DNA of 42,382 nt, taken from the NCBI GenBank assembly GCA_033809435.1, contig JAPXLS010000001.1, forward strand, positions 1 through 42,382, read 5' to 3'. The notes beneath the pieces are model-generated. The model was not told where the DNA came from. It worked only from the letters and a program-made list of their open reading frames with translations, and did no database searches. A program made the translations under genes and the position numbers. The DNA is from Bacillota bacterium (GTDB lineage: Bacteria > Bacillota > Dethiobacteria > DTU022). This document shows positions 19,819-41,470 of the stretch, piece after piece; the stretch's first letter is position 1; the number at the start of each line of letters is the position of its first letter.

Positions 19819-19851
19819 GCGGGGGCCCGGCCTCTCCGGACAGGCCCCCGC
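19819..19851 (-). other. strong GC-rich stem-loop between the binding-protein and permease genes (no U-tract)
   Basis: A 9-bp outer stem GCGGGGGCC/GGCCCCCGC plus a 3-bp inner stem. It lies 34 nt downstream of the SBP stop. Confidence 0.5.
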
Positions 19852-19884
19852 GCAAAGGACGCTATTTAGCGTTTAAGCTGACAG

Positions 19885-23094: not shown

Positions 23095-23250
23095 TGTTTT
23101 ACCTCCTCTGCAACTGTCATTCGCCCCTTATCCCGCTATGCCGCCTGCGTCCCGGGATTCCGGGACCGGCAAAGCGGGGTGTGTTCCACCGCATCGAAAA
23201 AGCAATTTTGCCGGCCCTTCAGGATCGGGAAAACAGGTAAGCGCCGGAAC

Positions 23251-23901: not shown

Positions 23902-24232
23902 CACTATCCCTCCCCAAATTAGGTGCTGAAACCGCAACAACAAATATTTCTGTAAAAAGCCCTTTCCAAAAGAGCAGCTTTGCAATCATATTCTTTCGGG
24001 CTACGGCCCTGTTCCCCGGGAACAGGCGGCGGCCGATATTAACAGAGTGAAACTCTTTTTATCTCCCCCGCTCGATTATATATTTTTACACTGCGCTCCG
24101 CCATAGCTGTTTTGCGAAGGTCCCCGACAGGTTATATTTTAAACCAGTTCTGCACAATATGCCATGGCAACTCTTGCTCTGAAAAGGGGCCGGGGCGGAG
24201 GCAGGTATAGACAGGGGTATGCGCCGGCGACC

Positions 24233-24263
24233 CCCGGAGACCCGGTGCTGCCGGGGCTCCGGG
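24233..24263 (-). other. GC-rich stem-loop downstream of binding-protein gene copy 2 (no U-tract)
   Basis: CCCGGAGaCCCGG-TGCTG-CCGGGgCTCCGGG on the plus strand: 12 bp with one mismatch and a 5-nt loop. It starts 42 nt past the SBP stop. Confidence 0.45.
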
Positions 24264-24304
24264 AGCGCGGCCGCCTTCATGGGACCGCTGCCGCCGCCGC
24301 GGTC

Positions 24305-25945: not shown

Positions 25946-26085
25946 TTTACTGTCTCCTTAGCTGTCATTTTGTAGCTCTTTCTCTGTTTGCATCATCAAC
26001 AGGCGGCTGCGCGCCGTTAACAATCGATCTGCAAAGCTACCGGGCCCCCCCCTCAATGAATGTCATCTCCCTCTCTTATCGGCGC

Positions 26086-27519
26086 CTAACCTGCGCTCTC
26101 CGCCTTCAGCTTCTCCAGGTAGAGATCGAGTTCACGGCAGAGTTCCTCCTCCAGGTACGGCCCGGGATAGGCTTTTACAATTTTCCTGATTTTCTCCCTG
26201 GCCGCCTCCCTGATGTTGGGGCATCCCTGGCCATACCAGTCGCCAAAGGGAAGCACATTGCCCAGCTCACCCCGCCAGAGCTCGCCCTTGCGCATAAACT
26301 CGCGGGTATGCTCCTGGGCCAGGAAGCTACCGCCCTCCATGACCGACCTGATCACGCTGACCCCGATGGTCTCCTCATTGACCTCCGTCTCACCGCAGCG
26401 GTGCGTGATCATCCCGTATATTTCATTATCTATCACCAGCTGCTCGGTGCTGGAGAGCGTGCCGCCGTTCAGCAGGCCAAAGCCCGATATGAGCGTGGCC
26501 CGGGCCAGGACAGGCAAAAGGCAGTTCAACGCCCTCTCGTAACCCGATTGAATGTCCGGCAGGACCGCCCCCGTATCCAGGCCGTAAACTGCAGAGGGCA
26601 GATTGTAGTAGCGGGCTACCTGGGCCGCACAGGCGCCGGAATAGCCGCGCACCAGGTTGCTGCCGGAGACAAAACCGGTCCGCATATCGGCGGCGCAGAG
26701 CCTGCTGGCGTAAACAAGGGGGCAGTCCCTGTTCACCAGGCGGGCCAGGGTCAAGAATGCCAGCTGCTCCGCGTTCTGCTGCACAAAACCGCCCACCAGG
26801 GTTACCGGCGCGGTGAGACCGCTGATGGGGCAGGGCAGCATGGTTATGGGCAGGCCCGTTTCGGCCACCTCGATAATTGTATCGCTGATATCCTCGGGAA
26901 AATGCAGCGGGCTCAGCGTGCTGATGGAGATGGTGCCCATGGGTTTGCGCTTGAGCCTGTCCATGCCGCCGCGAACCATGGCGGCAATTTCGATGAGCTT
27001 GCGCGCCTCCCAGGGCGTCGAAGCCAGTCCCATATCCACCGGCTTACGCGTATTGCGCATGGAGTAGATCGACGCCGCCAGGGAGGTGATCGTTTCGGGT
27101 AAATCGGTGGGCCAGATGCTGGGGACAATCTTGTCCAGGTAGGGCAGGTTGTCGCTGACCCAAACATATTCCTCCAGATCGCGGACATTGGCCTCCCTCA
27201 CCTGCCCGCTCTCCGGGTCCAGCAGCACAAAAACGGTGCCAAAATTGTGGGAATATGAGCGCCGGGCCTCGGTCACGGGGTAGACCAGCGACTCATCCAT
27301 GCCGTACACCGTCAGCGGAGCCGGCTCCTTCAAGGCCTCCTCTATCAGCACCTGGGGAAAACAGATCCGCCCCTCCTTCACCTTGCAGCCGGCGCCGAGC
27401 AGGATTTCCCGGGCCCTGTCCCCCTGAAGTTTGATGCCTATGCCGGACAGAATGTCGAGCGACTTTTCATGAATCATCTCCAGATCCTTTTTGGAAAACG
27501 GTTCAAAAGCCAACTTCAT
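26086..27519 (-). CDS. MttB-superfamily methyltransferase, non-pyrrolysine, copy 2
   Basis: 477 aa from the ATG at 27519 (GAAGGAGG SD). The track ORF extends to 27627 without support. About 65% identical to copy 1 over the first ~113 residues aligned by eye. No in-frame TAG. Confidence 0.85.
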   Translation of the reverse strand: MKLAFEPFSKKDLEMIHEKSLDILSGIGIKLQGDRAREILLGAGCKVKEGRICFPQVLIEEALKEPAPLTVYGMDESLVYPVTEARRSYSHNFGTVFVLLDPESGQVREANVRDLEEYVWVSDNLPYLDKIVPSIWPTDLPETITSLAASIYSMRNTRKPVDMGLASTPWEARKLIEIAAMVRGGMDRLKRKPMGTISISTLSPLHFPEDISDTIIEVAETGLPITMLPCPISGLTAPVTLVGGFVQQNAEQLAFLTLARLVNRDCPLVYASRLCAADMRTGFVSGSNLVRGYSGACAAQVARYYNLPSAVYGLDTGAVLPDIQSGYERALNCLLPVLARATLISGFGLLNGGTLSSTEQLVIDNEIYGMITHRCGETEVNEETIGVSVIRSVMEGGSFLAQEHTREFMRKGELWRGELGNVLPFGDWYGQGCPNIREAAREKIRKIVKAYPGPYLEEELCRELDLYLEKLKAESAG

Positions 27520-27627
27520 GATGCCTCCTTCTTCGTACTGGCTGCGGCGCGGGGGCCGGAACCTTGATTTTTTTGTCATCCCCGGCTGTGTGACCGCCTT
27601 TCCGTCACAGGCGCAGGGGGCGCGCAA

Positions 27628-28650
27628 TCACAGCGGCACTATCCGGCCCAGGCCGCACTCCAGGGCGCGGTTGAACATCTCCCTGCCCAGGACTACATCG
27701 CAGACCGCTATGCCTATGTTGCTGCAGACAATGAGCTCATTTTCGCTCTCCCTGCCCGGGGCCAGGCCGGCCAGAACCTCCCCCGTTTCGCAGGTTATCT
27801 GCGGCAGCCCCCCGGGGAAGTAGCCCATCTTGTCAAAAAGTCTATGTTCGTCAATGCTGTCGACAATGTATTTGTCGGCCCGCCTGGGGATGGCGGGATC
27901 CCAGAAGGTGTTTAGATCACAGGGCAAAATCGTTTGCCCCGGCACCACCCAGTCATCCTTGACCACGGCCAGGGGGTCCAGCAAGATAACCGTAGCCGAA
28001 CTCAGAACCTGGCAGTTCTTGACAACCTCTTCAGGGCATCCAGCGCGGACAATTTCCACATCCAGGTGCGGCTGAACTTTATGAATGAGATTATCCATGG
28101 CCTCGGCTCTAACATCATAGACATATATTTTCTGCAGTTTTTCCAGCACGTGCACCATGTACCTGCAATGCTCTATACCCTGCACACCGCAGCCGAACAT
28201 GCCGAATGTCTCGGCCTGGGGATGCAGCGCCTCCGCGGCGAGCACGGTTACCGCCGGCGTGCGCATGGCCGTAACTATTGTAGCATCCATCACCGCAAGG
28301 GGACAACCCGACAGAACATCATTTATGACCAGCAGGCCCGTTGTCTGGGGCAGGTTGAACTTCGTTGGATTGGAAGGGTAGCATTCAATCCATTTCAGAC
28401 CCACGGCCTTATTTCCTGGGACATAAGCGGGCATGGCATGGAAAAATACCTCGCTGAAGGGATGCACCCCCACCTTTGCCGGCATTTCGTATTCTTTTTG
28501 GCCGTGGGCGATGAGGGCCCCGCGAATGAGGGCCAGTATATCCTGTTCGGTCAGGGCTGTTTTCTCCACATCATCTTTGGAGAGGTAGAGCAGCTCCCGG
28601 CCAATTTCAAGTTTACCAGAAATCCAATGGCGATCTGCAGCTAAATCCAT
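27628..28650 (-). CDS. ornithine cyclodeaminase / mu-crystallin family protein
   Basis: About 340 aa. Rossmann motif FGCGVQG. Family-typical ..TAMRTPAVTVLAA.. The ATG at 28650 is preceded by AGGGTGGTAGGA. The track start at 28659 is GTG. Confidence 0.8.
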   Translation of the reverse strand: MDLAADRHWISGKLEIGRELLYLSKDDVEKTALTEQDILALIRGALIAHGQKEYEMPAKVGVHPFSEVFFHAMPAYVPGNKAVGLKWIECYPSNPTKFNLPQTTGLLVINDVLSGCPLAVMDATIVTAMRTPAVTVLAAEALHPQAETFGMFGCGVQGIEHCRYMVHVLEKLQKIYVYDVRAEAMDNLIHKVQPHLDVEIVRAGCPEEVVKNCQVLSSATVILLDPLAVVKDDWVVPGQTILPCDLNTFWDPAIPRRADKYIVDSIDEHRLFDKMGYFPGGLPQITCETGEVLAGLAPGRESENELIVCSNIGIAVCDVVLGREMFNRALECGLGRIVPL

Positions 28651-28785
28651 TCCTACCACCCTTTGTCAGTGTATCCGAATTGTATCGGCTGTTCGTATAA
28701 CAAAAATGCTGCAACAGCAATAAATATTGTTTTTTTGAATACAGGCGGTGTGCTCCATTTTAAGGTTGCCGGCAACAGCTCCTTT

Positions 28786-28954: not shown

Positions 28955-30736
28955 TTATCTGAGATTGTATTTTTTTAAGCGATAATAGAGGCGCTGCCTG
29001 CTCATGCCCAGCGCTGACGCAGCCCTGCTTATATTTCCCCCGGTTTTACGCAAGGCCAGCATAATCTTTGCCTTCTCCTGCTTTTGAATCTCCTCGAAAA
29101 TGCCGCCCCCGGCTTCATCACCCGAAGCCTGTTCAGCAGCCACTCCATTTTTAGCCCTTTCTTCCGTCCCCCGGAGCGATAGGGGCGGCACGCTTTTCCC
29201 ATGCTGCATGCTTGGCAGATGCCTGGGGATGTGCTCGATTTTGATGGGTCCCTCACCGGATTGAACCAGATTCATGGCGCATTCAATGCAATGCGCCAGC
29301 TGCCTGACATTCCCGGGCCAGCTGTAGCGGTGAAACATCTCCATAACCTCTGTGCTGACTCCGGCCACATTTTTCAGCATCGCAACATTGTATTTTTCAA
29401 CAAAATACCCTGTCAATATCTCCAGGTCGTCCAGGCGCTCGCGCAGGGGAGGGATATAGATATAGACAACGGCCAGCCGATAGAAGAGATCATCGCGCAG
29501 CTGCCCCTTTTCAATGGCTATGGAAGGCTCGATGTTGCAGCTGCTGATGATCCTCAAATCTACCGGAATTTTTTCCTTGCCGCCCAGTCTCATGATTTTT
29601 TTCTCTTCCACCACTCTGAGCAGCTTGCTCTGCAGCTCCACGGGCATGGCGTTTATTTCATCCAGAAAGAATGTACCGCCTCCGGCCAGCTCGATCAGCC
29701 CCGCCCTGTCCACGGCCCCTGTAAAGGCCCCCTTGGTGGTCCCGAAGAGAATCCCTTCCAACAGGTTGCCCGGAATGGCGGCGCAGTTGATTGCCAGAAA
29801 GGGCCCGCCGGAACGGCCGCCGGCCGCATGAATGCTCTGGGCAAACATCTCCTTCCCGGTGCCCGTTTCGCCGTAGATCAATACCGTGGAGTCGCTCCTG
29901 GCGCCCGCCTTGCCCCATTCAATGCATTCAAGCAGGCGCTTGTTTTTGCCGATAATCTGCTCAAAGGTATAGCTGGTATCCCTCTTGTTTCCTTTTACCC
30001 TGGCCCTTCCCGGCGCACCGGGGCCTTCATGGAATTGCAGGATCTTTTCCGCCATCTCCTTGAATTTGGGGAAATCCTTGGTTATGGCGGCGGCGCCGAT
30101 CAGTTTGCCCTCCTGGTAAAGGGGAATGGAGCTGCAGACAACGCTCACATATTTCCCCTTGCCGGTAACATAATTTTGATAAACGTCATAAAACGATTTC
30201 CCTTCTTTCAGGGATTGTAAAACCAGCGATGTGCTCTCATCCAGGTTGTATACCTCTTTCCAGCTCTTGCCCATCACCGTATCATCCAGCCCGTCTATCT
30301 CCTTTTGCGAGGGGTTGATGAATATGATGTTGCCGGCGGCATCGGCCACATGAATCCCCTCATCAATTGAATTCAGGATGCTTTCGTACATGTCTTTTGT
30401 CTGCTTCAGCTCGGCATAGCGGTGGCCCAGCTCAATGCTGAAGGGTTTGTCGGAAATAAACAATACTCTGTACCAGCCCTCTCCGGCTTCTGCCGCGGCA
30501 GTTCTGACAATCAGCTCCCTGTTGCTGTTTTTGATCCTGTAATTGCTGATCTCCCTGTCGCAATCAAGCCCCGGCAGGATCACATCCACCGGAAAACCGG
30601 TGATCCCCGCCGCCGGCTGGCCGAGCATGCGCTCCAGTTTCCGGTTGCACTTGACGATAATACCCCGGCTGTCAACCATGACCACTCCATCGTGGATGGA
30701 TTCCAGCAGCGCATCAAGGAGAAACGTTTCATCCAT
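28955..30736 (-). CDS. sigma-54-dependent transcriptional activator with N-terminal PAS domains (PAS-PAS-AAA+-Fis HTH)
   Basis: Walker A GETGTGKE, the sigma-54 contact motif GAFTGA, Walker B FFLDEI, and a C-terminal HTH GGNISRAASALGMSRQRLYYRLKK. The ATG at 30736 is preceded by AAAGGGGA. The track start at 30808 is TTG without an SD. Confidence 0.9.
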   Translation of the reverse strand: MDETFLLDALLESIHDGVVMVDSRGIIVKCNRKLERMLGQPAAGITGFPVDVILPGLDCDREISNYRIKNSNRELIVRTAAAEAGEGWYRVLFISDKPFSIELGHRYAELKQTKDMYESILNSIDEGIHVADAAGNIIFINPSQKEIDGLDDTVMGKSWKEVYNLDESTSLVLQSLKEGKSFYDVYQNYVTGKGKYVSVVCSSIPLYQEGKLIGAAAITKDFPKFKEMAEKILQFHEGPGAPGRARVKGNKRDTSYTFEQIIGKNKRLLECIEWGKAGARSDSTVLIYGETGTGKEMFAQSIHAAGGRSGGPFLAINCAAIPGNLLEGILFGTTKGAFTGAVDRAGLIELAGGGTFFLDEINAMPVELQSKLLRVVEEKKIMRLGGKEKIPVDLRIISSCNIEPSIAIEKGQLRDDLFYRLAVVYIYIPPLRERLDDLEILTGYFVEKYNVAMLKNVAGVSTEVMEMFHRYSWPGNVRQLAHCIECAMNLVQSGEGPIKIEHIPRHLPSMQHGKSVPPLSLRGTEERAKNGVAAEQASGDEAGGGIFEEIQKQEKAKIMLALRKTGGNISRAASALGMSRQRLYYRLKKYNLR

Positions 30737-31061
30737 CAAGGGACATCCCCTTTCAGCAGGATGTGCTGCAATTCTATATATTGCGCATCTCCTTCGTTTC
30801 CTTTTCAACAGAAGGGGGCAAAAAACCTTTTGGATTGCAATGTTTTTGTATGATTTTGTAGGTTATTTTGCGAATTGGACACATTTTATACATACTTGTC
30901 TTTAACGGGGAACCGGATCGACAGATGATTGTCAAGCCGCTCCGGTGGATGGCTGCCTGCGAAAAAAACGTATTGGGGTTAGATATCCGGGGGCAACAAA
31001 GCGCAAACCAACGCGTCAATTGGCTGCCGGACACCATGCACAGATAAAAGCGCAGGCCCGG

Positions 31062-32063
31062 TTATTCTCTTTTGCTGAAATAGGTTGAAGTCAGTGCAAC
31101 AGCCAGCACTACCCCTTTTACGATGTTCAGCGAATAATAGGGGACCGACATCATGACCAGACCATTTTCCAGAACACCTACCAGAACCGCGCCCAGAAAG
31201 GTGCCGAAAGCATTTGGTTTTTTCTGCCCGGCAAAGGAAAACCCGATAAATGCAGCAGCCACTGCGGGCATAAGATAACCGGCGCCGGCATTAATCTGGG
31301 CAGAACCGATCCTGGAGGCAATCATGATCCCGCCAAGGGCAGCCAGCGCGGTTGAAGCTATGTAGGCAATTGCCCGGTAGCCATGCACCGGTATGCCTGA
31401 AAGGCGCGCAGCTTCAATATTGCCGCCAACCATGTACATGTAGCGGCCATGCTTGGTATAATTGAGGAAAATATGTACCAGCAGCACTACCATGATCATG
31501 ATGATAATGATGTATGGCGCTTGACCGATCAGCCTGAATTGCCGGGAAAGCACACCGATGGTAGGGGTGCCGTCAAGGCGGGGCATGCCTGCGCTTATTG
31601 ATCCGCCTCCCGTGTATGTCATGGCCACACCTTCAAACAAGAATAAAGTCGACAATGTTGCCAGCATATCGGGTATTTTTACCTTGACAATTAAAAATAT
31701 ATTGACCAGGGCGATTACAAGTGTTACCGCAAGGGCAATGAGGATGGAAAATGTGGTGGACATGCTGTGCCATACAAACATGGAAACAACGAGGGAGCTG
31801 GCAAAAGTGGCGGCAGAGCCGATAGACAGGTCGAGGCCGTTGACACTTAGCGATACGGTCAGGCCGATGGCGATAACGGTGACGATGGAAATGCTCCTGA
31901 AGATGTTAAGGATATTCGAACTGGTTATGAACTGCGGCATGGTCAATGCAAAGAAAAATACAAGAACCACAATGGCCAGGACAGTACCCCAACTGGTTAA
32001 AAAATTAACAAGTTTGACGAGGAAACCGCTATCAGTTTTGACCGCCTTTACAGCACTGCTCAT
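31062..32063 (-). CDS. sugar ABC transporter permease (RbsC/branched-chain BPD_transp_2 type)
   Basis: 333 aa, about 9-10 TM segments, RbsC-like. The ATG lies 3 nt after the ATPase stop, with a GGGGGAA SD. Confidence 0.9.
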   Translation of the reverse strand: MSSAVKAVKTDSGFLVKLVNFLTSWGTVLAIVVLVFFFALTMPQFITSSNILNIFRSISIVTVIAIGLTVSLSVNGLDLSIGSAATFASSLVVSMFVWHSMSTTFSILIALAVTLVIALVNIFLIVKVKIPDMLATLSTLFLFEGVAMTYTGGGSISAGMPRLDGTPTIGVLSRQFRLIGQAPYIIIIMIMVVLLVHIFLNYTKHGRYMYMVGGNIEAARLSGIPVHGYRAIAYIASTALAALGGIMIASRIGSAQINAGAGYLMPAVAAAFIGFSFAGQKKPNAFGTFLGAVLVGVLENGLVMMSVPYYSLNIVKGVVLAVALTSTYFSKRE

Positions 32064-32066
32064 TCG

Positions 32067-33584
32067 CTATTTTCCCCCAGTAGAGTAATAGAGTATTTCC
32101 TCCTCATCGGTGTCAGAGGTCTTCAGTTCTTTGATTATTTTCCCGGCATACATGACGTAGATTCTATCTGTAATCATCAGCACTTCCGCGAACTCGTTGG
32201 AAGCATAGATTATACCTTTCCCCCCGGCAGCCAGACTGCCAATGAGATCAAACATATCTCTTTTGGCGCCAACATCCACGCCCTTGGTCGGTTCATCGAA
32301 GATATACACCTGACCGTCAGCCATGAGCCATTTCCCTACGGCGACCTTTTGCTGGTTGCCTCCGGAGAGATAGGCCACCTTTTGATTCTCGCTGGGAGTT
32401 ACTATTCCAAGCTTTCCAATCATCTTTTTGGCCGCAGCGCGCTCTTCCTGTGGTTTAAGAAAATTGAGGTAAGTGAAAGCGGCTAGATTCGCTGCGGTGA
32501 GATTGCAGAAGACGGGTTCTTCAACGAGCACGCCTTCCCTGCGCCTCTCTTCAGGCACCAGCGCCAACCCCTGCCTGACAGCTGTATATGGGGCGGCAAC
32601 CGCTATTTTCCTGCCCCCCAATTCTATTTCTCCCGACAGTACGGGCAAGGCTCCAAAAAGAGTTTTACACAATTCTGTCTTCCCCGCTCCAACCAAGCCG
32701 GCAATGCCCACAATTTCCCCGGAGCGAACATAAAAGTTTATATCCCTGATACCGCCATGTTTTCCGGATAGATTTCTTACATTCAGAAGCTCGCCGCCAA
32801 TCTCCACATCCTGTTTGATGTAGCTCTCTTCCATTTTGCCGCCCAGCATGAGCTCCACTGCCTGCTTTGGAGTCAGGCCCGCTATCTCTCTTTGGGCGAC
32901 GACCCTGCCGTCCTTCATAACGGTTATCTCTTCGCAGATCTCGAATACCTCAGGCAACCGGTGAGAAATAAATACAACACCAGCATTGTGATTTGAGGCC
33001 AGATCGTGAATGATGCGGAACAGCTCTTCTGTTTCTTTGGAGCTCAGGGAGGCCGTAGGTTCATCAAGAATAAAGAACCGCTGCTTTTTGACCATGGCGC
33101 GCGCAATCAAGGTCATCTGTTTTTGGGCTATGGTCAGATCCTGCACCCGTGTTCTTGTGTTTATCTTTATACCCAGGCGCTCCAGCACTTTTCCGGCTAC
33201 CCTGTGCACCTCCTGCCAGTTGATGAATAACCGGCTTTTCATCCCGCTGACCAGAAAATCCAGCATGATATTTTCTGCCACATCGAGGTACGGCACCAGG
33301 GCAGTGTCTACTTCCTGGTGAACAATATCTATCCCCAGCTCCTTCGCTTCCCGGGGCAGGCGAATGGTGACCTCCTCCCCGTCGATGTATATACTTCCGG
33401 TATAATGGCCGTAGGCGCCTGAAAGTACTTTCATCAGCGTTGACTTGCCGGCCCCGTTCGTGCCTACAAGGGCGTAGATACGACCTGTTTCCACTGTTAA
33501 ATCAACGTCTTTCAAAGCCTTCACGCCTGGAAATTCGATGGATATATTCTTCATTTCCAGTTTGTGTCGCTCTTTTGGTTGCAT
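32067..33584 (-). CDS. sugar ABC transporter ATP-binding protein, duplicated NBD (RbsA/MglA-like)
   Basis: Two ABC cassettes (GTNGAGKST ... LDEPTASL and a second signature LSGGNQQKV ... FDEPTKGVD). Preferred start is the ATG at 33584; the ATG at 33554 is an alternative. The ORF extension to 33680 is unsupported. Confidence 0.9.
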   Translation of the reverse strand: MQPKERHKLEMKNISIEFPGVKALKDVDLTVETGRIYALVGTNGAGKSTLMKVLSGAYGHYTGSIYIDGEEVTIRLPREAKELGIDIVHQEVDTALVPYLDVAENIMLDFLVSGMKSRLFINWQEVHRVAGKVLERLGIKINTRTRVQDLTIAQKQMTLIARAMVKKQRFFILDEPTASLSSKETEELFRIIHDLASNHNAGVVFISHRLPEVFEICEEITVMKDGRVVAQREIAGLTPKQAVELMLGGKMEESYIKQDVEIGGELLNVRNLSGKHGGIRDINFYVRSGEIVGIAGLVGAGKTELCKTLFGALPVLSGEIELGGRKIAVAAPYTAVRQGLALVPEERRREGVLVEEPVFCNLTAANLAAFTYLNFLKPQEERAAAKKMIGKLGIVTPSENQKVAYLSGGNQQKVAVGKWLMADGQVYIFDEPTKGVDVGAKRDMFDLIGSLAAGGKGIIYASNEFAEVLMITDRIYVMYAGKIIKELKTSDTDEEEILYYSTGGK

Positions 33585-33773
33585 ATTCCTCACCATAGAG
33601 ATTAACAAATTTGCAAAGCATGCATGCATACTTCCGGGTACCCCAGATGTACAATCACGGCGCAACCGGGTTTTCGTCAAACAGGAAAGAGGAGAGAGAA
33701 AGCTGATGCAAACCCCCTCTCCTCTCCCATTCAGTCTCCGCCGTTCAGCGTTTTGCCTCTCCTCAAGGCCTGC

Positions 33774-34907
33774 TTAATTTGCATAATGGGCGCGCAGAAT
33801 ACCCATCCAGGATTCGTTGAAAGCATCGGTAACTCCCCATCCCTTGACGGCTTCATGCAGGTTGAGCATACTTGTTCCAGGCGACAACTGCTCTTGTTTG
33901 ATCAGGTTTGCCTCAAGATCGTAATTGTCCGGGGTAGCCTCCCCGGCCAGCTTTTTGGCCAGCAGCCGCATGTTTACCCTTCCGATCAAAGCAGGGTCAA
34001 CGGCGGCGGTAGATACCCAATTGCTGCCCTCTTCCAACATAAGGTTGATATCCTGGTTGGAGATATCAATGGATATAAGGGGCATCTCCGTGCGGTTGTT
34101 TTCTTTCAAAGCAGTGTAAGCTCCCTTGGCCATTTCATCCCAGCATGCCCAAACTGCATCGATCTCCCCAGCGGGATACTTCGCCAGCACCGCCGCTACC
34201 TTGTCTGCAATATCTCCCTGGACATCCTGGAAGTTGGTCACCCCGATCGTCTCCAGGGTGGTGATTTTGCCGGCTTCCTCAAATTCTTCGTAGGTAACCT
34301 GGCGCCTGTCAAGGGGCGGAAAACCCGCCATCCAGAGCTTGATTACTCTTACAGGCTCTCCCGATTCTGAAAGTGCAGCCACCTCTTCCAGCGAGAGTCT
34401 GGCCAGCTCGAAATCATCCTGGAAAGTGGTGGTAATCTCGGGCAGCGTCTGCCCGTCTTTTTCGATTACCGTGTCAAAAACGACAACCTCGATTCCCGCT
34501 TCAACGGCAGGTTCGAGCATGTCGTAAGAATAGCTGTCTTTGCCATGAGAAACGATCAGCCCGTCATAACCTTTCTGAATGGCCTGGTTGACCAACTCCT
34601 GGAACCTGACATCATCAGCTTCGGAGATGAACGTATCTACCTTGAACCCAAAGGCCTGGCCTTCGGCTCTGGCCCCGTCCAGAAATTGCGTGGTATGGTC
34701 ATCAGAAGCCAGATTCCGGATGACAGCGATTTCCAAACCGCCCTGGACACCTTCAGGCACGCCATCAAGGACCTCTTCGTCTGCGGGAACTGCGGGCTGT
34801 GGACTGCAGGACGCTAACAGCAACAGGCTTGCAACCAGCAACACCATCAGTACCTTTTTCACTTCTCCATTCCCCCTTGCAATTTTAGTAATCGGTTGAC
34901 TCTCCAT
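33774..34907 (-). CDS. sugar-binding lipoprotein, periplasmic-binding-protein type I (RbsB-like)
   Basis: Lipobox LLLLASC. Peripla_BP_4-like core. The track ORF to 35021 overlaps the RLP gene. Candidate starts are the ATG at 34907 and the GTG at 34862 (AGGGGG SD, 9-nt spacer). Confidence 0.85.
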   Translation of the reverse strand: MESQPITKIARGNGEVKKVLMVLLVASLLLLASCSPQPAVPADEEVLDGVPEGVQGGLEIAVIRNLASDDHTTQFLDGARAEGQAFGFKVDTFISEADDVRFQELVNQAIQKGYDGLIVSHGKDSYSYDMLEPAVEAGIEVVVFDTVIEKDGQTLPEITTTFQDDFELARLSLEEVAALSESGEPVRVIKLWMAGFPPLDRRQVTYEEFEEAGKITTLETIGVTNFQDVQGDIADKVAAVLAKYPAGEIDAVWACWDEMAKGAYTALKENNRTEMPLISIDISNQDINLMLEEGSNWVSTAAVDPALIGRVNMRLLAKKLAGEATPDNYDLEANLIKQEQLSPGTSMLNLHEAVKGWGVTDAFNESWMGILRAHYAN

Positions 34908-34965
34908 CCCCTGGCCTTTACTGCGGTTTATCCCTGTACCGACAACACCTCCCTTTTTCTGCCGA

Positions 34966-36123
34966 CTACATCTCAACATGGTAATCTTCAACGAGTTTGC
35001 GAAAATAACGGCTGCTTTCAATCAGGTCGGGACCGTGTTTAAAAAGACCGCCTCCAACGAGGAATATTACATCATTGCCATAGACGGACAGCATATCAGG
35101 AATGCTCTCCAGGCTCATGCCGCCGGCGGGGCAGGGGAAAATGGGCTTTATCTCTCCCATGGTTACGGCAGTGCCGCGAACGATATCCTTGCATTCCGCC
35201 CTGGTGAAGGGAAACCGCCCGCCAAAGTTGGGATAGATGGTGCCGTCCGCTCCGGCCAGGCGGGCAAACTGCCCGAAGAGCGTGTAATGGGAAATTCCTG
35301 AGGCGCTATTAACATAGCTCCCCAGAAAAGAGGGATGAGCAAAAATGGGCAGCCCATAGCCATCATCCTCGGCAATCTCACGCATGGTTTCGTACCCCGT
35401 TAATCCGGGAGAGATGAGGATCCCGCCTGCGCCAAGATCCCTGGCCATTGCGGTTCTCTTGACCACATCGCTGTGCGAAGCAGTCACATTGGGCAAGTAA
35501 AGACAGCGATTCCCTGTCTGTGCATTGGCCCTGTTGACAGCTTCGGAGCAAAGTCTTATTCTTTCCTCGAAGGGAGAAAAGGGTTGGTTTGATATTCCGT
35601 GGTCATCCTTGATCAGGTCAATGCCTCCCAGCGCAAACTTGTAAGCCAGCGCCGCCAACTGACTGGAGGACAACCCCATAGGCTTAAGCGCGGTAAATAG
35701 AAGCGGCCGTTTATCGACTTTCAACAGATTCCGCAACCCCTTCCGGCCAAACCTGGGACCGGCAAAATTCTTAAGTATTGCCCGGGACAGGCGTACCTCT
35801 TCAACCCGGATACCCCGTTTCATGCTTATGTTGCCGTATACTACATTAATCAGCTGGGTCAGCTCACCGGCCGCAAGCTCCACGGCGTAGCTGATCACGG
35901 TTTGATAAAGATTCTCGCCATGGGGTTCAAAGGATATGATGCTTCCGGCGATCTGCTCTTTAATCGCCCCGGGCGGGAGCATCTCTTCCGGAAATTCCAC
36001 AGTCTGCTCATAACAGATATCCTTTGCCTTTGCGTAAGCTTTCCGTTCACTGCCTTCAATGTTATACACAACTGAAAAAGAATCGCCCGATAGTTTCAAT
36101 CCGGGAGTTTCAAAAAAAGACAT
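34966..36123 (-). CDS. RuBisCO-like protein (form IV large-subunit homologue)
   Basis: 385 aa from the ATG at 36123 (GGGGGAG SD). RuBisCO large-subunit motif equivalents are LKPMGLS (KPKLGLS), GGIDLIKDDHG (GGLDFTKDDEN), PIFAHPS (HRA), YPNFGGRF, PCPAGGMS and LVGGGLF. It is too short and too divergent for a carboxylase. Confidence 0.85.
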   Translation of the reverse strand: MSFFETPGLKLSGDSFSVVYNIEGSERKAYAKAKDICYEQTVEFPEEMLPPGAIKEQIAGSIISFEPHGENLYQTVISYAVELAAGELTQLINVVYGNISMKRGIRVEEVRLSRAILKNFAGPRFGRKGLRNLLKVDKRPLLFTALKPMGLSSSQLAALAYKFALGGIDLIKDDHGISNQPFSPFEERIRLCSEAVNRANAQTGNRCLYLPNVTASHSDVVKRTAMARDLGAGGILISPGLTGYETMREIAEDDGYGLPIFAHPSFLGSYVNSASGISHYTLFGQFARLAGADGTIYPNFGGRFPFTRAECKDIVRGTAVTMGEIKPIFPCPAGGMSLESIPDMLSVYGNDVIFLVGGGLFKHGPDLIESSRYFRKLVEDYHVEM

Positions 36124-36147
36124 TCGCTCCACTCCCCCGCAGTCTGC

Positions 36148-37155
36148 CTATAGTGCTTCTTCTTTTGCCTTGCTGTGAACATCCATGCTGAAAGGTTCAG
36201 CCAGCTTTTCTTCGCTGATATCGAAAACGGTGTTGAGTTTCTTCTCGATCCCCCTGATCAGGGCCATGGCATCGAGGCCGTATTCCTTCATCAGATACCG
36301 TTTTCCGGCCCCGTGCATAAAGGTATCCTGCAGGCCGATCCTGGTGAGCCCTTTCCCGATCCCCGCTTCAGCCATTTTCTCGGCGATGATGCTGCCCAGC
36401 CCCCCGATGATGCTGTGGTTTTCCATGGTGATGACACCGTATTTGGAAGCGGCCACAGCCTGAAGCACAGAATCGTTTTTAAAAGGTTTCAGGGTGGAGA
36501 TATGCATATGCTGAAGTGAAAGTCCCTTTTTTTGCAATTGTTGTGTGGCCCGCAAAGCTTCTTCGGTGCAGATGCCGCTGGTGAGGAGCGTTAAATCACT
36601 TCCCTCGCTCATTATCCGGGGGCAATCCAGCCGCATCGGCTCGGAAGCGGGGAACAGCCTCGGAATTTCACCGCGCAGCATCCTTATATATACTGGTCCA
36701 TCCACCCTGTAGGCCACCTCGAGCACAGATTCTACATCGGTGGCGTCGCCGCACTCCAGAATGGTCATATTGGGCAGGGAACGCATTACGGAAATATCTT
36801 CTATGGCCTGGTGGGTAGCTCCACCCGGCGTCATAACCCCGGGCAGGAACCCGAACATCTTTACGGGCATATTGGGATAAGCCACCGACATGGAAATCTG
36901 GTCGTAGGCCCTCCGGTAAATAAACACGGCAAATGTGTGGACACAGGGTATGTAGCCTTCCCGGGCCAGGCCCCCGGCGAAGCTGAGCATATTCTGTTCG
37001 GCAATGCCCATCGAGAAAAACCGCTCCGGGTAGGTATCTCTGAAATAATCAATTTCCGTTGAACCTGTCAGATCCGCCGATAAAACCACCACCTGCTGCT
37101 TATCTCTTGCCCATTCAACAAGATTTTTAGCATGAACCTTGGTCAACACTTCCAC
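36148..37155 (-). CDS. transketolase, C-terminal (pyrimidine-binding + C-terminal domain) subunit
   Basis: 335 aa. FFSMGIAEQNMLSFAGGLAREGYIP is typical. GTG start with an AGGAGG SD and 8-nt spacer. It overlaps the N-terminal subunit gene by 29 nt. Confidence 0.9.
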   Translation of the reverse strand: MEVLTKVHAKNLVEWARDKQQVVVLSADLTGSTEIDYFRDTYPERFFSMGIAEQNMLSFAGGLAREGYIPCVHTFAVFIYRRAYDQISMSVAYPNMPVKMFGFLPGVMTPGGATHQAIEDISVMRSLPNMTILECGDATDVESVLEVAYRVDGPVYIRMLRGEIPRLFPASEPMRLDCPRIMSEGSDLTLLTSGICTEEALRATQQLQKKGLSLQHMHISTLKPFKNDSVLQAVAASKYGVITMENHSIIGGLGSIIAEKMAEAGIGKGLTRIGLQDTFMHGAGKRYLMKEYGLDAMALIRGIEKKLNTVFDISEEKLAEPFSMDVHSKAKEEAL

Positions 37156-38104
37156 GGGCCCGGCCTCCTGTCGAAATCTTGCTCATCGCCTCGAGGTGAA
37201 GTTGATACAGGGCTTTCTCTTCTTCGCTGCCAAAGCGAACATAGTGCAGTTTGGGTATTCTGTTTTTCAGGATGTTTATGCCGCAGCAGGCGTCGGTCCG
37301 ACACAGGATAAAGGTAGGCCTGTGATCTGGCTCTCTCAGCCCGCATTCGATGAGCGCCCCAACATCATGACCGTCAATCCTGGACACCCGCATACCGAAA
37401 GATTCCAGCCTCAGATCGAAGGGCTCGATGTTCAACACATTTTCCACCTTGCCATCGCACTGATAGCCATTTACATCGACATAGACCACCATGTTGCCCA
37501 GTTTATAATGGCTCATCACTTGAAGGGCTTCCCAGAATTGCCCCGACTGGCACTCGCCGTCGGACATGAACATGAATACACGGCCCATTTCTTTTTTCAG
37601 CTTGCGGGCCATGGCGATCCCCGCTGCCTGGCTGATCCCCTGCCCCAGGGATCCGGTCATGATTTCCATCCCCGGCGAATGCTCGGCCCCGATCATCTCC
37701 ACCACACTGCCGTCCTTGTTGAAATGATCCAGTCCATCCGGGGACATGCGCCCCGTCTCGATCAGGGTGGCATAAAGGACAAGGGAATACTGGGATGGTG
37801 AGAGGAAAAAACGGTCATATCTATCTGATTTGGGGCCATTGTAAGCGGCACCCGTAAAATAGCCGGTGTTACCGGGGCCCGGAACTCCGGGAAAGGGCTT
37901 CGGGACCAGGGGTTCTTCCAATTTGCCCAGCTTTAGCACCTGCATGTAAAGGGCAGCAAAGATCTCGGCTGATGAACAGGCCTGACTCAAATAACCCCCG
38001 TTGTTCTTGATGGTATGCTCCAGCACACGCCGCCTTATGCAGGAAGCGACGCGGTAAACATTCTCCACACCCTTCAGATCATCAAATTTCGACGCTCTTT
38101 CCAT
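37127..38104 (-). CDS. transketolase, N-terminal (ThDP/PP-binding) subunit
   Basis: 325 aa. ThDP-binding region MSDGECQSGQFWEALQVMSHYKLGNMVVYVDVNGYQCDG and TGSLGQGISQAAGIA. AAGGAGGG SD. Note GGY where GGH/SGH is usual (see findings). Confidence 0.9.
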   Translation of the reverse strand: MERASKFDDLKGVENVYRVASCIRRRVLEHTIKNNGGYLSQACSSAEIFAALYMQVLKLGKLEEPLVPKPFPGVPGPGNTGYFTGAAYNGPKSDRYDRFFLSPSQYSLVLYATLIETGRMSPDGLDHFNKDGSVVEMIGAEHSPGMEIMTGSLGQGISQAAGIAMARKLKKEMGRVFMFMSDGECQSGQFWEALQVMSHYKLGNMVVYVDVNGYQCDGKVENVLNIEPFDLRLESFGMRVSRIDGHDVGALIECGLREPDHRPTFILCRTDACCGINILKNRIPKLHYVRFGSEEEKALYQLHLEAMSKISTGGRARGSVDQGSC

Positions 38105-38152
38105 TCATGCAGTCCCTCCTTGGCTCCGACCATAAGCGGTTGCCGCCGAAAT

Positions 38153-38944
38153 TCAGTTCTTTGCACTGATCACTTCAACACCGGATTCGCTGAATTCTTT
38201 AAGGCACTGCTCCTGTTCTGCGGAAAAAGGTTCAAGCTCATCGGTAAGAATTACATTTATCCTTTGTGCAGGGCATATCTGGTAGAATGCAATCTTGGCC
38301 AATTTGGACCTGTCCACCATGACAAAGAGCCTGTCTGTTTTTTCAAGCATGGCCTGTTTGGCCCTGCCTTCCTCGATCGCCTTTTCCGTCAGCCCCTCAT
38401 TGAAACTAAGGGCATGGCTCGAAAAGAAAGCCTTATCTATATACATGGATTCAAGCGATTTTCTGGTTATAGAGCCAAAAAGGGAAAGTGAGATGCTTCT
38501 CATAAAACCGCCAAGCACTACAACGGTAATTTGTGGGGCTTCGGATAGTTCGATGGCAATACTCAGGTTATTGGTCACAACAGTCAATTTTTTGCCAAAC
38601 TTGATCAATTTACTAACCTCAAGTGCCGTTGTGCTGGCATCGAAAGCTACGACATCGCCATCTTCGATGAGATCTGCCGCCACTTTCGCGATAGCCATCT
38701 TTTCTGCCCGGTTGGCATCTATCCTTTCTCGAATGGTAGTCTCATAAGATTTCTTTGTGTTTAATCTGGCTCCGCCATAAACCCGAACAATCTCCCCGTC
38801 CCTTTCCAGCTGCTCCAGATCTCTTCTGATGGTCATTTCGGAAACGTTGAAAGTCTTGCTTAAACTGGAGACATCTGCGAAATTATTTTCTACCAGCAGA
38901 TCGATGATCCTTTTTCTCCTCAATTGATAAGGAATATTCTGCAT
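38153..38944 (-). CDS. DeoR-family transcriptional regulator
   Basis: 263 aa. N-terminal HTH_DeoR (VSSLSKTFNVSEMTIRRDLEQLERDGEIVRVYGGA) and a C-terminal DeoRC sugar-phosphate sensor domain. Confidence 0.9.
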   Translation of the reverse strand: MQNIPYQLRRKRIIDLLVENNFADVSSLSKTFNVSEMTIRRDLEQLERDGEIVRVYGGARLNTKKSYETTIRERIDANRAEKMAIAKVAADLIEDGDVVAFDASTTALEVSKLIKFGKKLTVVTNNLSIAIELSEAPQITVVVLGGFMRSISLSLFGSITRKSLESMYIDKAFFSSHALSFNEGLTEKAIEEGRAKQAMLEKTDRLFVMVDRSKLAKIAFYQICPAQRINVILTDELEPFSAEQEQCLKEFSESGVEVISAKN

Positions 38945-38961
38945 CCTTTTCCATCACCTCA

Positions 38962-40035
38962 TTATTGTTGGCTGTTCTCGCCGTTAGAATAAATACATTT
39001 GCGCAGGTTTTCTGCATAGGGCGGGTAAACTATGCCCTTCTCCGTTACAATGGCGGTAATGTTTTCATGAGGTGTCACATCAAAAGAGGGGTTGTATATA
39101 TGTACGCCCTCCGGCGCTGTAGGCACACCGAAGCGGTGCGAGACCTCCCGGGGATCCCTTTCCTCAATGGGAATATCCTCACCGTTTTTCGTCTTCAAAT
39201 CTATGGTCGGAGTTGGAGCAGCCACATAGAATGGAATGCGATAATGCCCGGCCAGAATGGAGAGGCCCAGGGTGCCGATCTTGTTCGCTGCGTCCCCATT
39301 GGCAGCCACCCTGTCGCAGCCCACCAGAACGGCGTCGATTTTCCCCTGAGACATGACCACGGCAGCCATGCTGTCGGTAATAATGGTAACATCGATACCA
39401 GCCTGCTGCAGCTCGAAAGCAGTCAGAGTCGACCCCTGCAGCCTGGGCCTTGTTTCATCCGCATAAACTTTGAAGCGCCAGCCTTTTTCCTTGGCCAGGT
39501 ACATGGGAGCCGTGGCGGTGCCGTATTTGGCTGTGGCCAGGGCACCGGCATTGCAGTGGGTCAAAAGGCCCATACCGTCCTGAAGAAGTGTAAGCAGGTT
39601 TTCGCCTATCCTCCTGTTGATCTCTTCGTCTTCTGCGTGTATGGCCACCGCTTCCGACAACAGCTTCTCCTTTATCTCCGGTACGGCCAAATTCTTGTGG
39701 GCGGCGGCCTTATCCTTCATCCTGTCCAAAGCCCAGAAAAGGTTCACTGCAGTGGGTCGGGAGGCGGCCAGATATCCGGATTTTTCTCTCAGCACTTCGT
39801 AGAACTCTTCAAATTTGCTGTGATCCGGCACATCCTTTATTCCCATATATAGACCGTAAGCGGCAGCTATGCCTATAGCCGGCGCCCCCCTAACCTTCAT
39901 AAACTTTATCGCTTCACAAACAGCTTCCGCTGTATGGAGCTCCTCGTAGACAATTCTGGCGGGCAGGAGCGTCTGATCCAGCAGTACGAGACTGTCCTTT
40001 TCCTTCTCCCACCGGATATGGTTGAAATCTTTCAT
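38962..40035 (-). CDS. mtnA: S-methyl-5-thioribose-1-phosphate isomerase (eIF-2B-like family)
   Basis: Motifs [24 protein letters not shown] and [33 protein letters not shown]...[17 protein letters not shown]. The ATG at 40035 has a GGAGGA SD with a 7-nt spacer. The track start is at 40053. Confidence 0.9.
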
Positions 40036-40062
40036 AATCCTGTCCTCCAACATCTGCCGGTA

Positions 40063-41292
40063 TCATACCCGGATGCTGCCGGCAGTTTCTTTAAATATCC
40101 TCAGGAAGTCAAGGCCCTTTGTGAAATCAGCACGTTTCTTGATGTACTCCTTGGCCGAGATCAGGCAAATTCGCTCCGCGAGCAGCCTCGCCTTTTCATC
40201 TTTAATTGAAGTAATGTCGGCAACATGGGCAAGACCGATTATACGACGGCAGAGCTCCAGACCCACCACGCCCGCTGCATCCTCGATCACGCGGTCAAGG
40301 TACCATCTGTCGAAACCGCTTTCCCGTGCCAAAATTTCCGTAACATGCTCGCTCCAGGACTGTAAAAATTTTTCTCGAAAAATATCTACAACTTCAACTA
40401 TGGTTTCCTCCAGCCACCCGAGGTAATCAGCCTTCTTTTCTTCGTCGGCAATAGTTACATAGGCATTGGCCCAGGCAAATAGAAGGTTGGCCACAACATT
40501 CCCGACGTCATATCCCATGGGGCCGTAAAAGGCAAATTCGGGATCTATCACTTTTGTGGAATCAGTTCTGACAAATATGGATCCGGTATGCAGATCGCCG
40601 TGAATCAGCGCCTGGGCATTGGTTAAAAAGTCAAACTTGAGCCGGGCCGCTTCAAATAGAAGCTCCCTGTCGCCGTATATTTCCCTTTCTATCCATCCGA
40701 GGTTTGGCGGGAACACCTCATTCCGCTTGTTGCAATCGTTGAACGGCTCCGTGTACACAAGATCCTCTGTTATTTCACAGAGCTGAGGGTTAATGTATTC
40801 TTTAACCAGTTCCTTTTTTTCTTTATGATCAAGAACAACATCGCTTGTTAGAAGCAAAGTGTTGACCATGAAGGTGGTAATATGATCAACAAAGTATGGG
40901 AATTTTTGATGATCGATCAGGGCTTGACGCATGATTACATGGTCCGAAAGGTCCTCCATGGCAAAGCAGTGCATTATATCATCGTATTTATATACCCGTG
41001 GGGCCAGACCAGGCGCCAATTTCCCGGCAAGGATCATGGCGCTCGATTCGATCCTGTTACGGCGTGTTGAAAGTTTGAATTCATCGGATATGCGGGCGGC
41101 ATCGCCTGCATGTTTTATAATTATTGACTTGTTTGAATTCCTATCCCGCACCCGGAATATGTAATTAATATTCCCATCGCCAATCTCCGCAACTTCAAGA
41201 TCCGCTTCATCATCAAAATAATCAAGCCTCTCCCTTGCATAGTCAAGGACATCTTCCGGTTTCATCAGAAAATAAGTATCAAACCTTGACAT
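40063..41292 (-). CDS. mtnK: 5-methylthioribose kinase
   Basis: 409 aa. N-terminal [13 protein letters not shown] and catalytic-loop [12 protein letters not shown] are typical of MtnK (APH-fold kinase). AGGAGG SD. Confidence 0.9.
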
Positions 41293-41441
41293 TTACTTAC
41301 CTCCTGTTTTCCCCAAACTGTCTGCTTAACAAGGGGTTAACCCCAGGTTTCCCAAATTTTTAAAGAGAACCTATGATATCCTGAAATTTCTATATATGTT
41401 CGGATATGAACCTAATATGTTTATCTGTAATCGTTTTCATC

Positions 41442-41470
41442 ATTATACATTATATTCTGGTATGTTGCAA
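41442..41470 (-). promoter_or_regulatory. sigma-70/SigA-type promoter upstream of mtnK
   Basis: The minus strand reads TTGCAA (41470-41465), a 17-nt spacer, then TATAAT (41447-41442). This leaves a leader of about 140 nt before the mtnK ATG. Confidence 0.6.

Follow-up and report, generated by a model that had tools for sequence, protein, structure and literature searches.

Comparative genomics of a RuBisCO-like protein and a linked transketolase-like enzyme suggests a new form of S-adenosylmethionine by-product salvage

Introduction

How might 5-methylthioribulose-1-phosphate (MTRu-1-P) be consumed by a gene cluster that encodes neither a cupin nor an aldolase? The question is raised by an operon in a 42,382-nucleotide stretch of a Bacillota genome (GenBank assembly GCA_033809435.1, contig JAPXLS010000001.1, positions 1 to 42,382), hereafter called the window. 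Nine minus-strand open reading frames (ORFs), spanning 41292..31062 and all running in the same direction, encode the kinase MtnK, the isomerase MtnA, a DeoR-family regulator, the two halves of a split transketolase-like enzyme (tktN and tktC), a form-IV RuBisCO-like protein (RLP) and a three-component ATP-binding cassette (ABC) importer (Table 1). MtnK and MtnA yield MTRu-1-P, which RLP1-type proteins convert into 1-methylthio-xylulose-5-phosphate (MTXu-5-P) and 5-methylthioribulose-5-phosphate in a ratio of 3:1. Most form-IV RuBisCO-like proteins have no assigned function. Here we describe the linked transketolase-like and RLP genes (the tkt-RLP pair) as a predicted new form of S-adenosylmethionine (SAM) by-product salvage, a proposal that is well supported by comparative genomics.

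Full-text literature searches returned no paper on an RLP-transketolase route, with a prior description in subscription journals being possible. The string 'ketolase' is absent from the text of Beaudoin 2018 (PMC6079011), and transketolase is not mentioned in Sekowska 2018 or Miller 2018. An initial interpretation of the window, made from its letters and predicted frames and referred to below as the sequence-only reading, had proposed that the transketolase cleaves the RLP product. It had also mentioned comparative-genomics remarks that transketolase genes replace the aldolase in some clostridial 5-deoxyribose clusters, for which no confirmation was found.

Results

The tkt-RLP pair is conserved far beyond the window. 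An alignment of RLP relatives (A1) searched against 185,579 species genomes gave 587 confirmed loci, the best 80 of which were kept, and their gene content was determined by BLAST of the nine window proteins against six-frame ORFs. In 59 of these 80 genome loci tktC lies directly upstream of the RLP gene; tktN is present in 51, the rest having fused 2-kb tkt genes or truncated contigs. According to the record titles, the tkt-positive loci carry more than 10 phylum labels, among them Bacillota, Nitrospirota, Chloroflexota, Planctomycetota, Spirochaetota and Acidobacteriota, as well as Calditrichota, Myxococcota, Synergistota, Verrucomicrobiota and one Promethearchaeota bin. A search of metagenomes with an alignment of linked tktC sequences (A2) gave another 80 loci, 64 of them with at least 600 nt downstream, and an RLP is present in 50 of these 64.

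The genes that would feed the pair accompany it less often, with mtnA in 13 of the 80 genome loci, mtnK in 12 and the ABC genes in 10-12. Both mtnK and mtnA stand beside the pair in, for example, Clostridium ljungdahlii and C. drakei. The complete set of eight or nine genes is seen again in a metagenome-assembled genome from Bacillota (L001), in these two clostridia (L047, L049) and in Chloroflexota (L058, L064), and the identical nine-gene cluster is found on at least 23 public contigs. Because the cluster is present on at least 23 contigs and its core in more than 100 independent loci, the arrangement is no chance juxtaposition. The neighbourhood singled out by the sequence-only reading proved to be conserved very widely, chiefly through this core, and gene fusions, described below, extend the association.

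Several variants were observed among the related loci. In the Nitrospirota-type loci both halves of the transketolase-like enzyme are joined in one 2-kb gene. Between this fused tkt and the RLP gene, or just downstream, is the gene for a 160-aa protein of the AhpD/CMD family whose CxxC motif reads HCEHC (for example L035:9487-9948; also L015, L028, L037, L041, L045, L109, L116, L137, L139, L146, L151, L152 and L160), and this thiol-disulfide protein might handle methyl-persulfide or mixed-disulfide species. A protein of about 380 aa belonging to the SBP_bac_1 family, apparently with no signal peptide, adjoins the RLP in about 10 loci (L033:6859-7986, L056:4163-5317, L067:2233-3402, L075:12084-13289 and L078:4085-5233, with L058, L059, L069 and L073), where it would be a cytoplasmic 'binding protein'. 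Two loci (L087:3890-4977, L088:7005-8092) have mtnA-tktN-tktC with no RLP next to them, followed by a transposase fragment and then by a 110-aa cupin and a HAD-like gene; they may represent a disrupted or rearranged locus. Four loci (L013, L014, L018, L021) have sulfate-type ABC transporter genes (Sbp/CysT/CysW-like) in the vicinity of the RLP, and MetY-like and threonine synthase genes lie near the fused-tkt loci L037, L146, L151, L153 and L163; these neighbours fit a sulfur or methionine context, in a loose association.

The RLP itself is closest to a characterized isomerase. Its best match in the Protein Data Bank (PDB) is 3qfw, RLP1 of Rhodopseudomonas palustris (244 bits, E 1.8e-71), the next matches scoring 150 bits or less (E 6e-43), with MtnW (2oek) at 141 bits and the Photo-clade proteins 1ykw and 2qyg at 124-126. 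The motif GGIDLIKDDHG corresponds to GGVDLIKDDHG in 3qfw, placing K-D-D-H where RuBisCO has K201-D-D203-E204. The E204 equivalent is a His, as in RLP1, whereas RuBisCO and MtnW have a Glu, and the four residues (K175, D176, D177, H178) are invariant in 58 relatives. Work both in vivo and in vitro has established R. palustris RLP1 (RPA2169) as the enzyme that carries out the 1,3-isomerisation of MTRu-1-P in the methylthioadenosine (MTA)-isoprenoid shunt (PMC5893883). By PDB search scores the window RLP is nearer to RLP1 than to MtnW, the Photo clade or RuBisCO forms I-III, and we predict that it is a DeepYkr/RLP1-type MTRu-1-P 1,3-isomerase; since its identity to RLP1 is modest (37%), we infer the shared reaction from this relationship.

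Database names point to another function. The top NCBIfam name for the protein is the PRK09549 enolase model, and some relatives are recorded as '2,3-diketo-5-methylthiopentyl-1-phosphate enolase', so the RLP could be an MtnW-like enolase acting on that compound, with the canonical salvage genes elsewhere in the genome and the transketolase genes as passengers. The score behind the name, however, is 204 bits with NF007095 (PRK09549), half of its cutoff of 409, and TIGR03332 gives 158 bits against 513, so that the RLP fails both MtnW models. The solved MtnW structure likewise scores far below RLP1, and the His at the E204 equivalent is that of RLP1. A linkage that crosses phyla, together with fusion proteins, is moreover incompatible with passenger effects. 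Assignment to the MtnW enolase clade, which would have refuted the sequence-only reading, does not hold by these scores, and we regard the enolase alternative as extremely unlikely.

The partners of the known routes are likewise missing from the neighbourhood. Pfam searches of the larger ORFs found no MtnB, MtnC, MtnD or MtnX, class II aldolase (Aldolase_II), cupin or MetY in the window outside the salvage operon, and BLAST found no match to a cupin, aldolase or MetY among the six-frame window ORFs of at least 50 aa. Contigs that reach about 9 kb past the mtnK end carry none of the missing enzymes either, so that the absence of mtnB, mtnX and mtnD, which also speaks against the enolase, covers 31 kb on one side and 9 kb on the other. 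What had been noted for the window, that no MtnB, MtnC, MtnX, MtnD, aldolase or cupin accompanies the operon, therefore extends to these flanking 9 kb.

A cupin does appear in related loci, in place of the transketolase. Eight of the 80 genome loci have no tkt and carry a 150-aa cupin beside the RLP instead; four of the eight also have an O-acetylhomoserine sulfhydrylase, which scores 584 bits with TIGR01326 (cutoff 495). This cupin matches PDB 3jzv (E 7e-43), the structure of Rru_A2000, which we take to be the MTXu-5-P methylsulfurylase, an identity reportedly due to Warlick et al. 2012. The cupin step removes the methylthio group from MTXu-5-P with glutathione, giving 1-deoxyxylulose-5-phosphate (DXP), and the R. 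palustris counterpart of Rru_A2000 is RPA2170 (PMC5893883). In the 80 genome loci tkt and cupin never occur together (naive hypergeometric P = 7e-6, a value that treats the loci as more independent than they are, since those with the cupin fall into two clades). Cupin-type RLPs are nested within tkt-type RLPs in a neighbour-joining tree, no alignment column splits the two types, and identity between the window RLP and the cupin-type proteins lies at 58-61%. Taken together, the nesting, the lack of a separating column and this level of identity suggest that one and the same RLP reaction supplies either of two downstream enzymes, the cupin or the thiamine diphosphate (ThDP) enzyme, which is the simplest reading of the alternation.

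Gene fusions connect the two proteins still more directly. A phmmer search with tktN against 1.84 billion representatives gave 113 clusters at E<=1e-30, and several top matches align to RLP, tktN and tktC in one chain. On one contig (L171) the RLP and the N- and C-halves of the transketolase (TKN and TKC) lie in one frame, and a GT..AG intron divides the IIK|DDHG motif, which marks the gene as eukaryotic. Full-length fusions of 1115-1185 aa in the order RLP-TKN-TKC (PF00016 + PF00456 + PF02779 + PF02780) are present in the centric diatoms Cyclotella cryptica, C. atomus, Thalassiosira profunda, T. exigua and Skeletonema marinoi. They are annotated as hypothetical or generic proteins and retain both the RLP motifs and the transketolase-like signature motifs. 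As Rosetta-stone evidence, these fusions indicate that the two activities work together. The fusion proteins include P0276, P0279, P0288 and P0302, and an additional stretch of about 450 aa extends the C-terminus of the Skeletonema model.

The transketolase-like enzyme has an active site of its own. Split and fused RLP-linked sequences, 55 in all, were aligned to E. coli TktA and Dxs (TktA numbering throughout); counting motifs in 234 ORFs drawn from the two locus sets confirmed the resulting pattern. The Mg/ThDP ligands D155, G156 and N185 and the cofactor-activating Glu (E411) are retained and invariant in the 55 members; H473, D381 and the phosphate site (R358 as K or R, S385, R520) are also retained. 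Four substitutions are invariant (H26Y, I189C, H461F, D469G), the H100 position holds Met (50 sequences) or Leu (5), and the H66 position varies between Gln and His. In the window, tktN shows this signature as Y38, Q105, M137, E141-H142 and C216, and tktC has the equivalents of E411, H473 and R520 together with the H461F and D469G changes. The family can be recognized by the motifs NNGGYLSQACS, VE[M/L]IGAEHSPG, QCDG and GFLPGxxxPGGxTHQ. An apparent loss of His261 was traced to a MAFFT misalignment caused by an E. coli insertion and was dropped; the invariant His of PK(L/M)HYVR is probably the His261 equivalent.

In true transketolases, His100 helps to bind the C1 hydroxyl of the donor, and its replacement by Met or Leu fits a methylthio or methyl substituent at C1. 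The retained phosphate ligands combined with the invariant substitutions likewise fit a phosphorylated ketose with a hydrophobic, non-hydroxyl substituent at that carbon. Other split transketolases act on unusual donors, as seen in the apulose-4-phosphate transketolase AptAB and the 6-deoxy-6-sulfofructose transketolase SqwGH, and the closest solved structure to the present enzyme is a split transketolase from Carboxydothermus (6yak/6yaj). None of the curated models is passed: the NCBIfam transketolase model gives 160 bits for tktN and 212 for tktC against a cutoff of 488, and the DXP synthase model TIGR00204 gives 26 bits for the N half and 178 for the C half against 466, in two chains rather than one.

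We weighed whether the enzyme could be a true, group-transferring transketolase, moving a C2 unit to an aldose of the pentose-phosphate pathway or using methylthioribose (MTR) or 5-deoxyribose as acceptor to form 7-substituted heptuloses. For the latter there is reportedly a precedent in Synechococcus, whose promiscuous housekeeping transketolase makes 7-deoxysedoheptulose from 5-deoxyribose. The fold (PF00456, PF02779, PF02780), the ThDP/Mg ligands, the activating Glu, H473 and probably the His261 equivalent all agree with EC 2.2.1.1. Set against this, five first-shell residues are invariantly replaced, with Tyr, Met or Leu, Phe and Gly where transketolases have His26, His100, His461 and Asp469, and the curated models stay under half of their cutoffs. 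Transfer of a methylthio-hydroxyethyl unit to sugar phosphates would presumably create dead-end thio-sugars, and the retained phosphate ligands and the presence of MtnK speak against an unphosphorylated acceptor. By these sequence features the RLP-linked enzyme is not a canonical transketolase, which makes simple C2 transfer unlikely, and we consider a group-transferring role very improbable.

Part of the signature is found outside the RLP-linked family. Sister transketolase-like subfamilies with 40-49% identity keep GGY..QACS, lack the Cys and occur in other sugar or polyol contexts with no RLP, which rules out the idea that the whole signature is specific to RLP partners. Three such groups (L172, L173/L174 and L176; proteins P0131, P0138 and P0134) have Val rather than Cys at the I189 position and lie, respectively, with an enoyl-CoA hydratase, an NAD dehydrogenase and ApbA, with a small cupin and an alcohol dehydrogenase, and in a PfkB/sugar ABC locus. 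These split subfamilies may be further ThDP enzymes.

Discussion

The observations above can be assembled into a pathway in which all reactions downstream of MtnA are inferred, as are the compound on which the ThDP enzyme acts and what becomes of the C2 unit. The ABC importer would take up the sugar, MtnK would convert it into MTR-1-phosphate and MtnA into MTRu-1-P, and the RLP, acting as RLP1 does in Rhodospirillum rubrum and R. palustris, would form MTXu-5-P. In place of the cupin methylsulfurylase, the split ThDP enzyme would then attack C2 of MTXu-5-P and cut the C2-C3 bond, yielding glyceraldehyde-3-phosphate (G3P) and a 2-methylthio-1-hydroxyethyl-ThDP intermediate. That the transketolase-like enzyme consumes the RLP product is, in our judgement, somewhat favoured by the comparative evidence. 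This portion of the sequence-only reading gains from the mutual exclusion with the cupin, the fusions, and the Met or Leu at the site that contacts the C1 hydroxyl of the donor; a caveat is that the enzyme is no canonical transketolase, so that simple C2 transfer is unlikely. GAPDH genes, which adjoin five Nitrospirota-type loci, weakly support the release of G3P.

For the intermediate we favour beta-elimination of methanethiol, which would leave acetyl-ThDP and, in a phosphoketolase-like reaction, acetate or acetyl-phosphate, the methanethiol then being re-used for methionine. As the main alternative, the intermediate would be protonated and leave as 2-(methylthio)acetaldehyde. Loss of a beta-leaving group from a ThDP enamine has precedents in 3-fluoropyruvate, which loses fluoride on pyruvate dehydrogenase E1, and in the dehydration step of phosphoketolase. 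Elimination of methanethiolate is favoured since a pure C2 transfer, in which the methylthio-hydroxyethyl group passes to an aldose, would presumably be unproductive for metabolism and give only dead-end thio-sugars. A 'methylthio-phosphoketolase' or C-S lyase that turns MTXu-5-P into G3P, methanethiol and an acetyl unit (acetate or acetyl-phosphate) is nevertheless a tentative assignment, possible rather than likely. Acetate kinase, Pta and alcohol dehydrogenase genes, which would show the fate of the C2 unit, do not recur among the neighbours.

The operon might alternatively dispose of 5-deoxyribose, a sugar that derives from the radical-SAM by-product 5'-deoxyadenosine. In that case 5-deoxyribulose-1-phosphate would be converted by the RLP into DXP, and a DXS-like reaction in reverse would give G3P and hydroxyethyl-ThDP, the latter released as acetaldehyde, with no sulfur involved. 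Most of the hosts are anaerobes, a group rich in radical-SAM enzymes. The tktC half is about equally like DXS and transketolase, given its 178 bits with TIGR00204 and its matches to DXS in the PDB; Met or Leu at H100 would suit a C1 methyl equally well, and MtnK and MtnA homologues use 5-deoxyribose in the dihydroxyacetone phosphate (DHAP) shunt (PMC6079011, PMC12632272). MtnK itself may phosphorylate either MTR or 5-deoxyribose. On the other hand, DXP is already a central metabolite for which a dedicated, linked and even fused cleaving enzyme would be unnecessary, and the enzyme that alternates with tkt is a cupin whose only known role is to remove the methylthio group from MTXu-5-P. MetY and sulfate-transporter genes lie beside some loci, and in several tkt-RLP loci a FucA-like aldolase could process 5-deoxyribulose-1-phosphate. 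Because DXP needs no disposal enzyme and the alternating partner is demethylthiolating, this explanation is the weaker one, and we hold it to be rather unlikely. Of the two substrates left open by the sequence-only reading, MTR is accordingly preferred on account of that partner and 5-deoxyribose falls behind. The operon as a whole probably serves DeoR-controlled uptake and intracellular salvage of 5-methylthioribose, and possibly of 5-deoxyribose too.

Several observations weigh against cleavage of MTXu-5-P by the pair. The function proposed for it rests on comparative genomics, and the RLP shares only 37% identity with R. palustris RLP1. mtnK and mtnA accompany the pair in just about 15% of loci, and 14 of the 64 tktC-seeded loci, mostly of the fused-tkt type, have no RLP in the flank. 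H26Y is common to the sisters not linked to an RLP, so that part of the signature is not pathway-specific. An invariant E-H pair five residues past the H100 position might restore a His in three dimensions, and D469G together with H461F could reflect a binding mode unlike that of xylulose-5-phosphate-type donors. No SAM/S-box riboswitch or other Rfam element was found upstream of the operon or in 12 related loci, which leaves a direct regulatory tie to methionine missing. Finally, a FucA-like aldolase is also present in seven tkt-RLP loci, which implies that the pair is not always an aldolase substitute and suggests that a DHAP-shunt-like aldolase and the RLP/tkt branch coexist in parallel.

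The FucA-like aldolase of these loci scores 59 bits, below the MtnB cutoff of 137. It was noted with the tkt-RLP pair at L001:14499-15149, L003, L005, L006, L033:6129-6875, L056, L075, L092 and L093.

One of the described systems closest to the proposed route is the MTA-isoprenoid shunt of R. rubrum and R. palustris, which consists of MtnP, MtnA, the DeepYkr RLP1, the cupin methylsulfurylase and O-acetylhomoserine sulfhydrylase. Both are independent of oxygen and pass from MtnA to an RLP1-type protein with KDDH, and those relatives of the window RLP that share 58-61% identity with it adjoin an Rru_A2000-type cupin and MetY. Here, in contrast, entry is through an importer and MtnK rather than MTA phosphorylase, the transketolase-like ThDP enzyme stands where the cupin is absent, the predicted carbon products are G3P and a C2 unit instead of DXP, and no glutathione-type thiol co-substrate is implied.

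The DHAP shunt is known as mtnK-mtnA-ald2 with a transporter in extraintestinal pathogenic E. coli (PMC12632272) and as 5-deoxyribose clusters with transporters (PMC6079011), and in Bacillus thuringiensis it is encoded by drdK/drdI/drdA. Its operon logic is that of ours, combining kinase and isomerase genes with a transporter and a DeoR-family regulator to handle MTR and 5-deoxyribose of exogenous and endogenous origin. The class II aldolase (Ald2/DrdA) is replaced here by the RLP and the transketolase-like enzyme, and cleavage is proposed to follow 1,3-isomerisation, giving G3P rather than DHAP. Salvage through MtnW (YkrW clade) in Bacillus also combines mtnK, mtnA and a RuBisCO-superfamily RLP in one cluster, but MtnB, MtnX and MtnD and the S-box riboswitch have no counterpart in our operon, the MtnW models are failed and the E204 equivalent is a His. 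As for the ThDP enzyme, it resembles AptAB, SqwGH, DXP synthase and phosphoketolase in its ThDP/Mg motif, its activating Glu and its place in a dedicated sugar-phosphate pathway, and shares with AptAB and SqwGH the split into PP and Pyr+C chains. It differs from all four in its own invariant signature, in passing no curated model and in its unique linkage and fusion to an RLP.

If correct, this would be a third oxygen-independent exit from MTRu-1-P, beside the cupin (DXP and methanethiol) and the aldolase (DHAP and methylthioacetaldehyde), and a new reaction type in the transketolase superfamily. Hundreds of genes annotated merely as 'transketolase' or 'RuBisCO large subunit' would then encode an isomerase/lyase pair, and the recovery of sulfur and carbon from methylthioadenosine or methylthioribose in glutathione-free anaerobes would be explained. 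Should methanethiol indeed be released, the sulfur product would be that of the cupin route, obtained without glutathione or oxygen. The route would span clostridia, Nitrospirota, Chloroflexota, Planctomycetota and, with fused enzymes, centric diatoms, where it would be relevant to marine sulfur and volatile methanethiol cycling.

Operon layout, regulation and neighbouring genes

Gene families were assigned with Pfam and NCBIfam, the cutoffs being those of the curated models. The sequence-only reading of nine co-directional genes with a 29-nt overlap between tktN and tktC was accurate in every detail; the gaps between genes measure 3 to about 100 nt. The public annotation of identical contigs has the same genes and overlap and fixes the likely starts, placing them at 40035 for mtnA and 36123 for the RLP. 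MtnK, with its APH-type kinase fold, and MtnA pass their curated cutoffs. For the substrate-binding protein (SBP) the maximal ORF is 35021-33774, and the start at 34862 in the public gene calls gives VKKVLMVLLVASLLLLASC, with the lipobox LLASC visible in the translation. A Peripla_BP_4 SBP, an ATPase with two nucleotide-binding domains and a BPD_transp_2 permease together define a CUT2 importer. The ATPase is RbsA-, XylG- and AraG-like yet under their cutoffs, and none of the three components reaches an equivalog cutoff for the ribose, xylose, allose or arabinose systems.

Table 1. Genes and candidate regulatory elements of the salvage operon
Feature	Coordinates	Strand	Basis
Promoter candidate, sigma-70-like, TTGCAA-17-TATAAT	41442..41470	-	consensus scan, 10/12 matches
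mtnK, 5-methylthioribose (or 5-deoxyribose) kinase	40063..41292	-	TIGR01767 equivalog, 411 bits vs cutoff 275; APH fold, PF01636
mtnA, MTR-1-phosphate isomerase	38962..40053	-	TIGR00512, 447 vs 279; NF004326, 483 vs 271; IF-2B fold, PF01008
DeoR-family regulator	38153..38944	-	HTH_DeoR + DeoRC domains
tktN, PP-domain subunit of ThDP transketolase-like enzyme	37127..38104	-	PF00456
tktC, Pyr + C-domain subunit of transketolase-like enzyme	36148..37155	-	PF02779 + PF02780
RLP, form IV, DeepYkr/RLP1-like, predicted MTRu-1-P 1,3-isomerase	34966..36132	-	PF00016 only
SBP, CUT2 (ribose-type) importer lipoprotein	33774..34862	-	Peripla_BP_4
Hairpin with T-rich tail, SBP-ATPase gap	33693..33722	-	terminator-like scan, 12 pairs
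Importer ATPase, two nucleotide-binding domains	32067..33554	-	two ABC_tran stretches; maximal ORF from 33680
Importer permease	31062..32063	-	BPD_transp_2; RbsC-like, 166 bits vs cutoff 398

The promoter-like candidate lies about 150 nt upstream of mtnK. Between it and mtnK, at 41360-41440 on the minus strand, AACATAT direct repeats and an ATATCC...GGATAT inverted repeat were recognized by eye as a candidate DeoR operator. In E. coli the DHAP-shunt operon of the extraintestinal pathogen is repressed by the DeoR-family protein MtnR (PMC12632272). The hairpin in the SBP-ATPase gap is, speculatively, a possible attenuator. An Rfam scan of the window returned no family at the gathering score.

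The rest of the window holds insertion sequence genes, a MATE transporter, an M20 peptidase, two large secreted proteins and an Opp-type ABC system, as well as two MttB-family methyltransferases with a corrinoid protein, an ornithine cyclodeaminase homologue, a sigma-54 activator and an HD-GYP protein. The two MttB-superfamily genes at 21661-28659 are complete (477 and 513 aa, with no in-frame stop) and are accompanied by the corrinoid-binding protein; two family-5 SBPs with the Opp-type ABC system (15952-21519) and the ornithine cyclodeaminase homologue lie nearby, and the PAS/sigma-54 activator (28955-30808) adjoins them. This region looks like a locus for demethylation of a quaternary amine or proline derivative. 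The stretch 9231-15880 contains two ORFs of 1072 and 1131 aa with only faint matches to Peptidase_C25 and CarboxypepD_reg, and its G+C content of 61-64%, compared with about 50% for the salvage operon, makes it a compositional island. Mobile-element genes occupy 124-4549 at the left end, where an unassigned 228-aa ORF precedes an IstB-like ATPase; further along come an rve integrase accompanied by an AAA_22 ATPase, and a DUF6431 protein.

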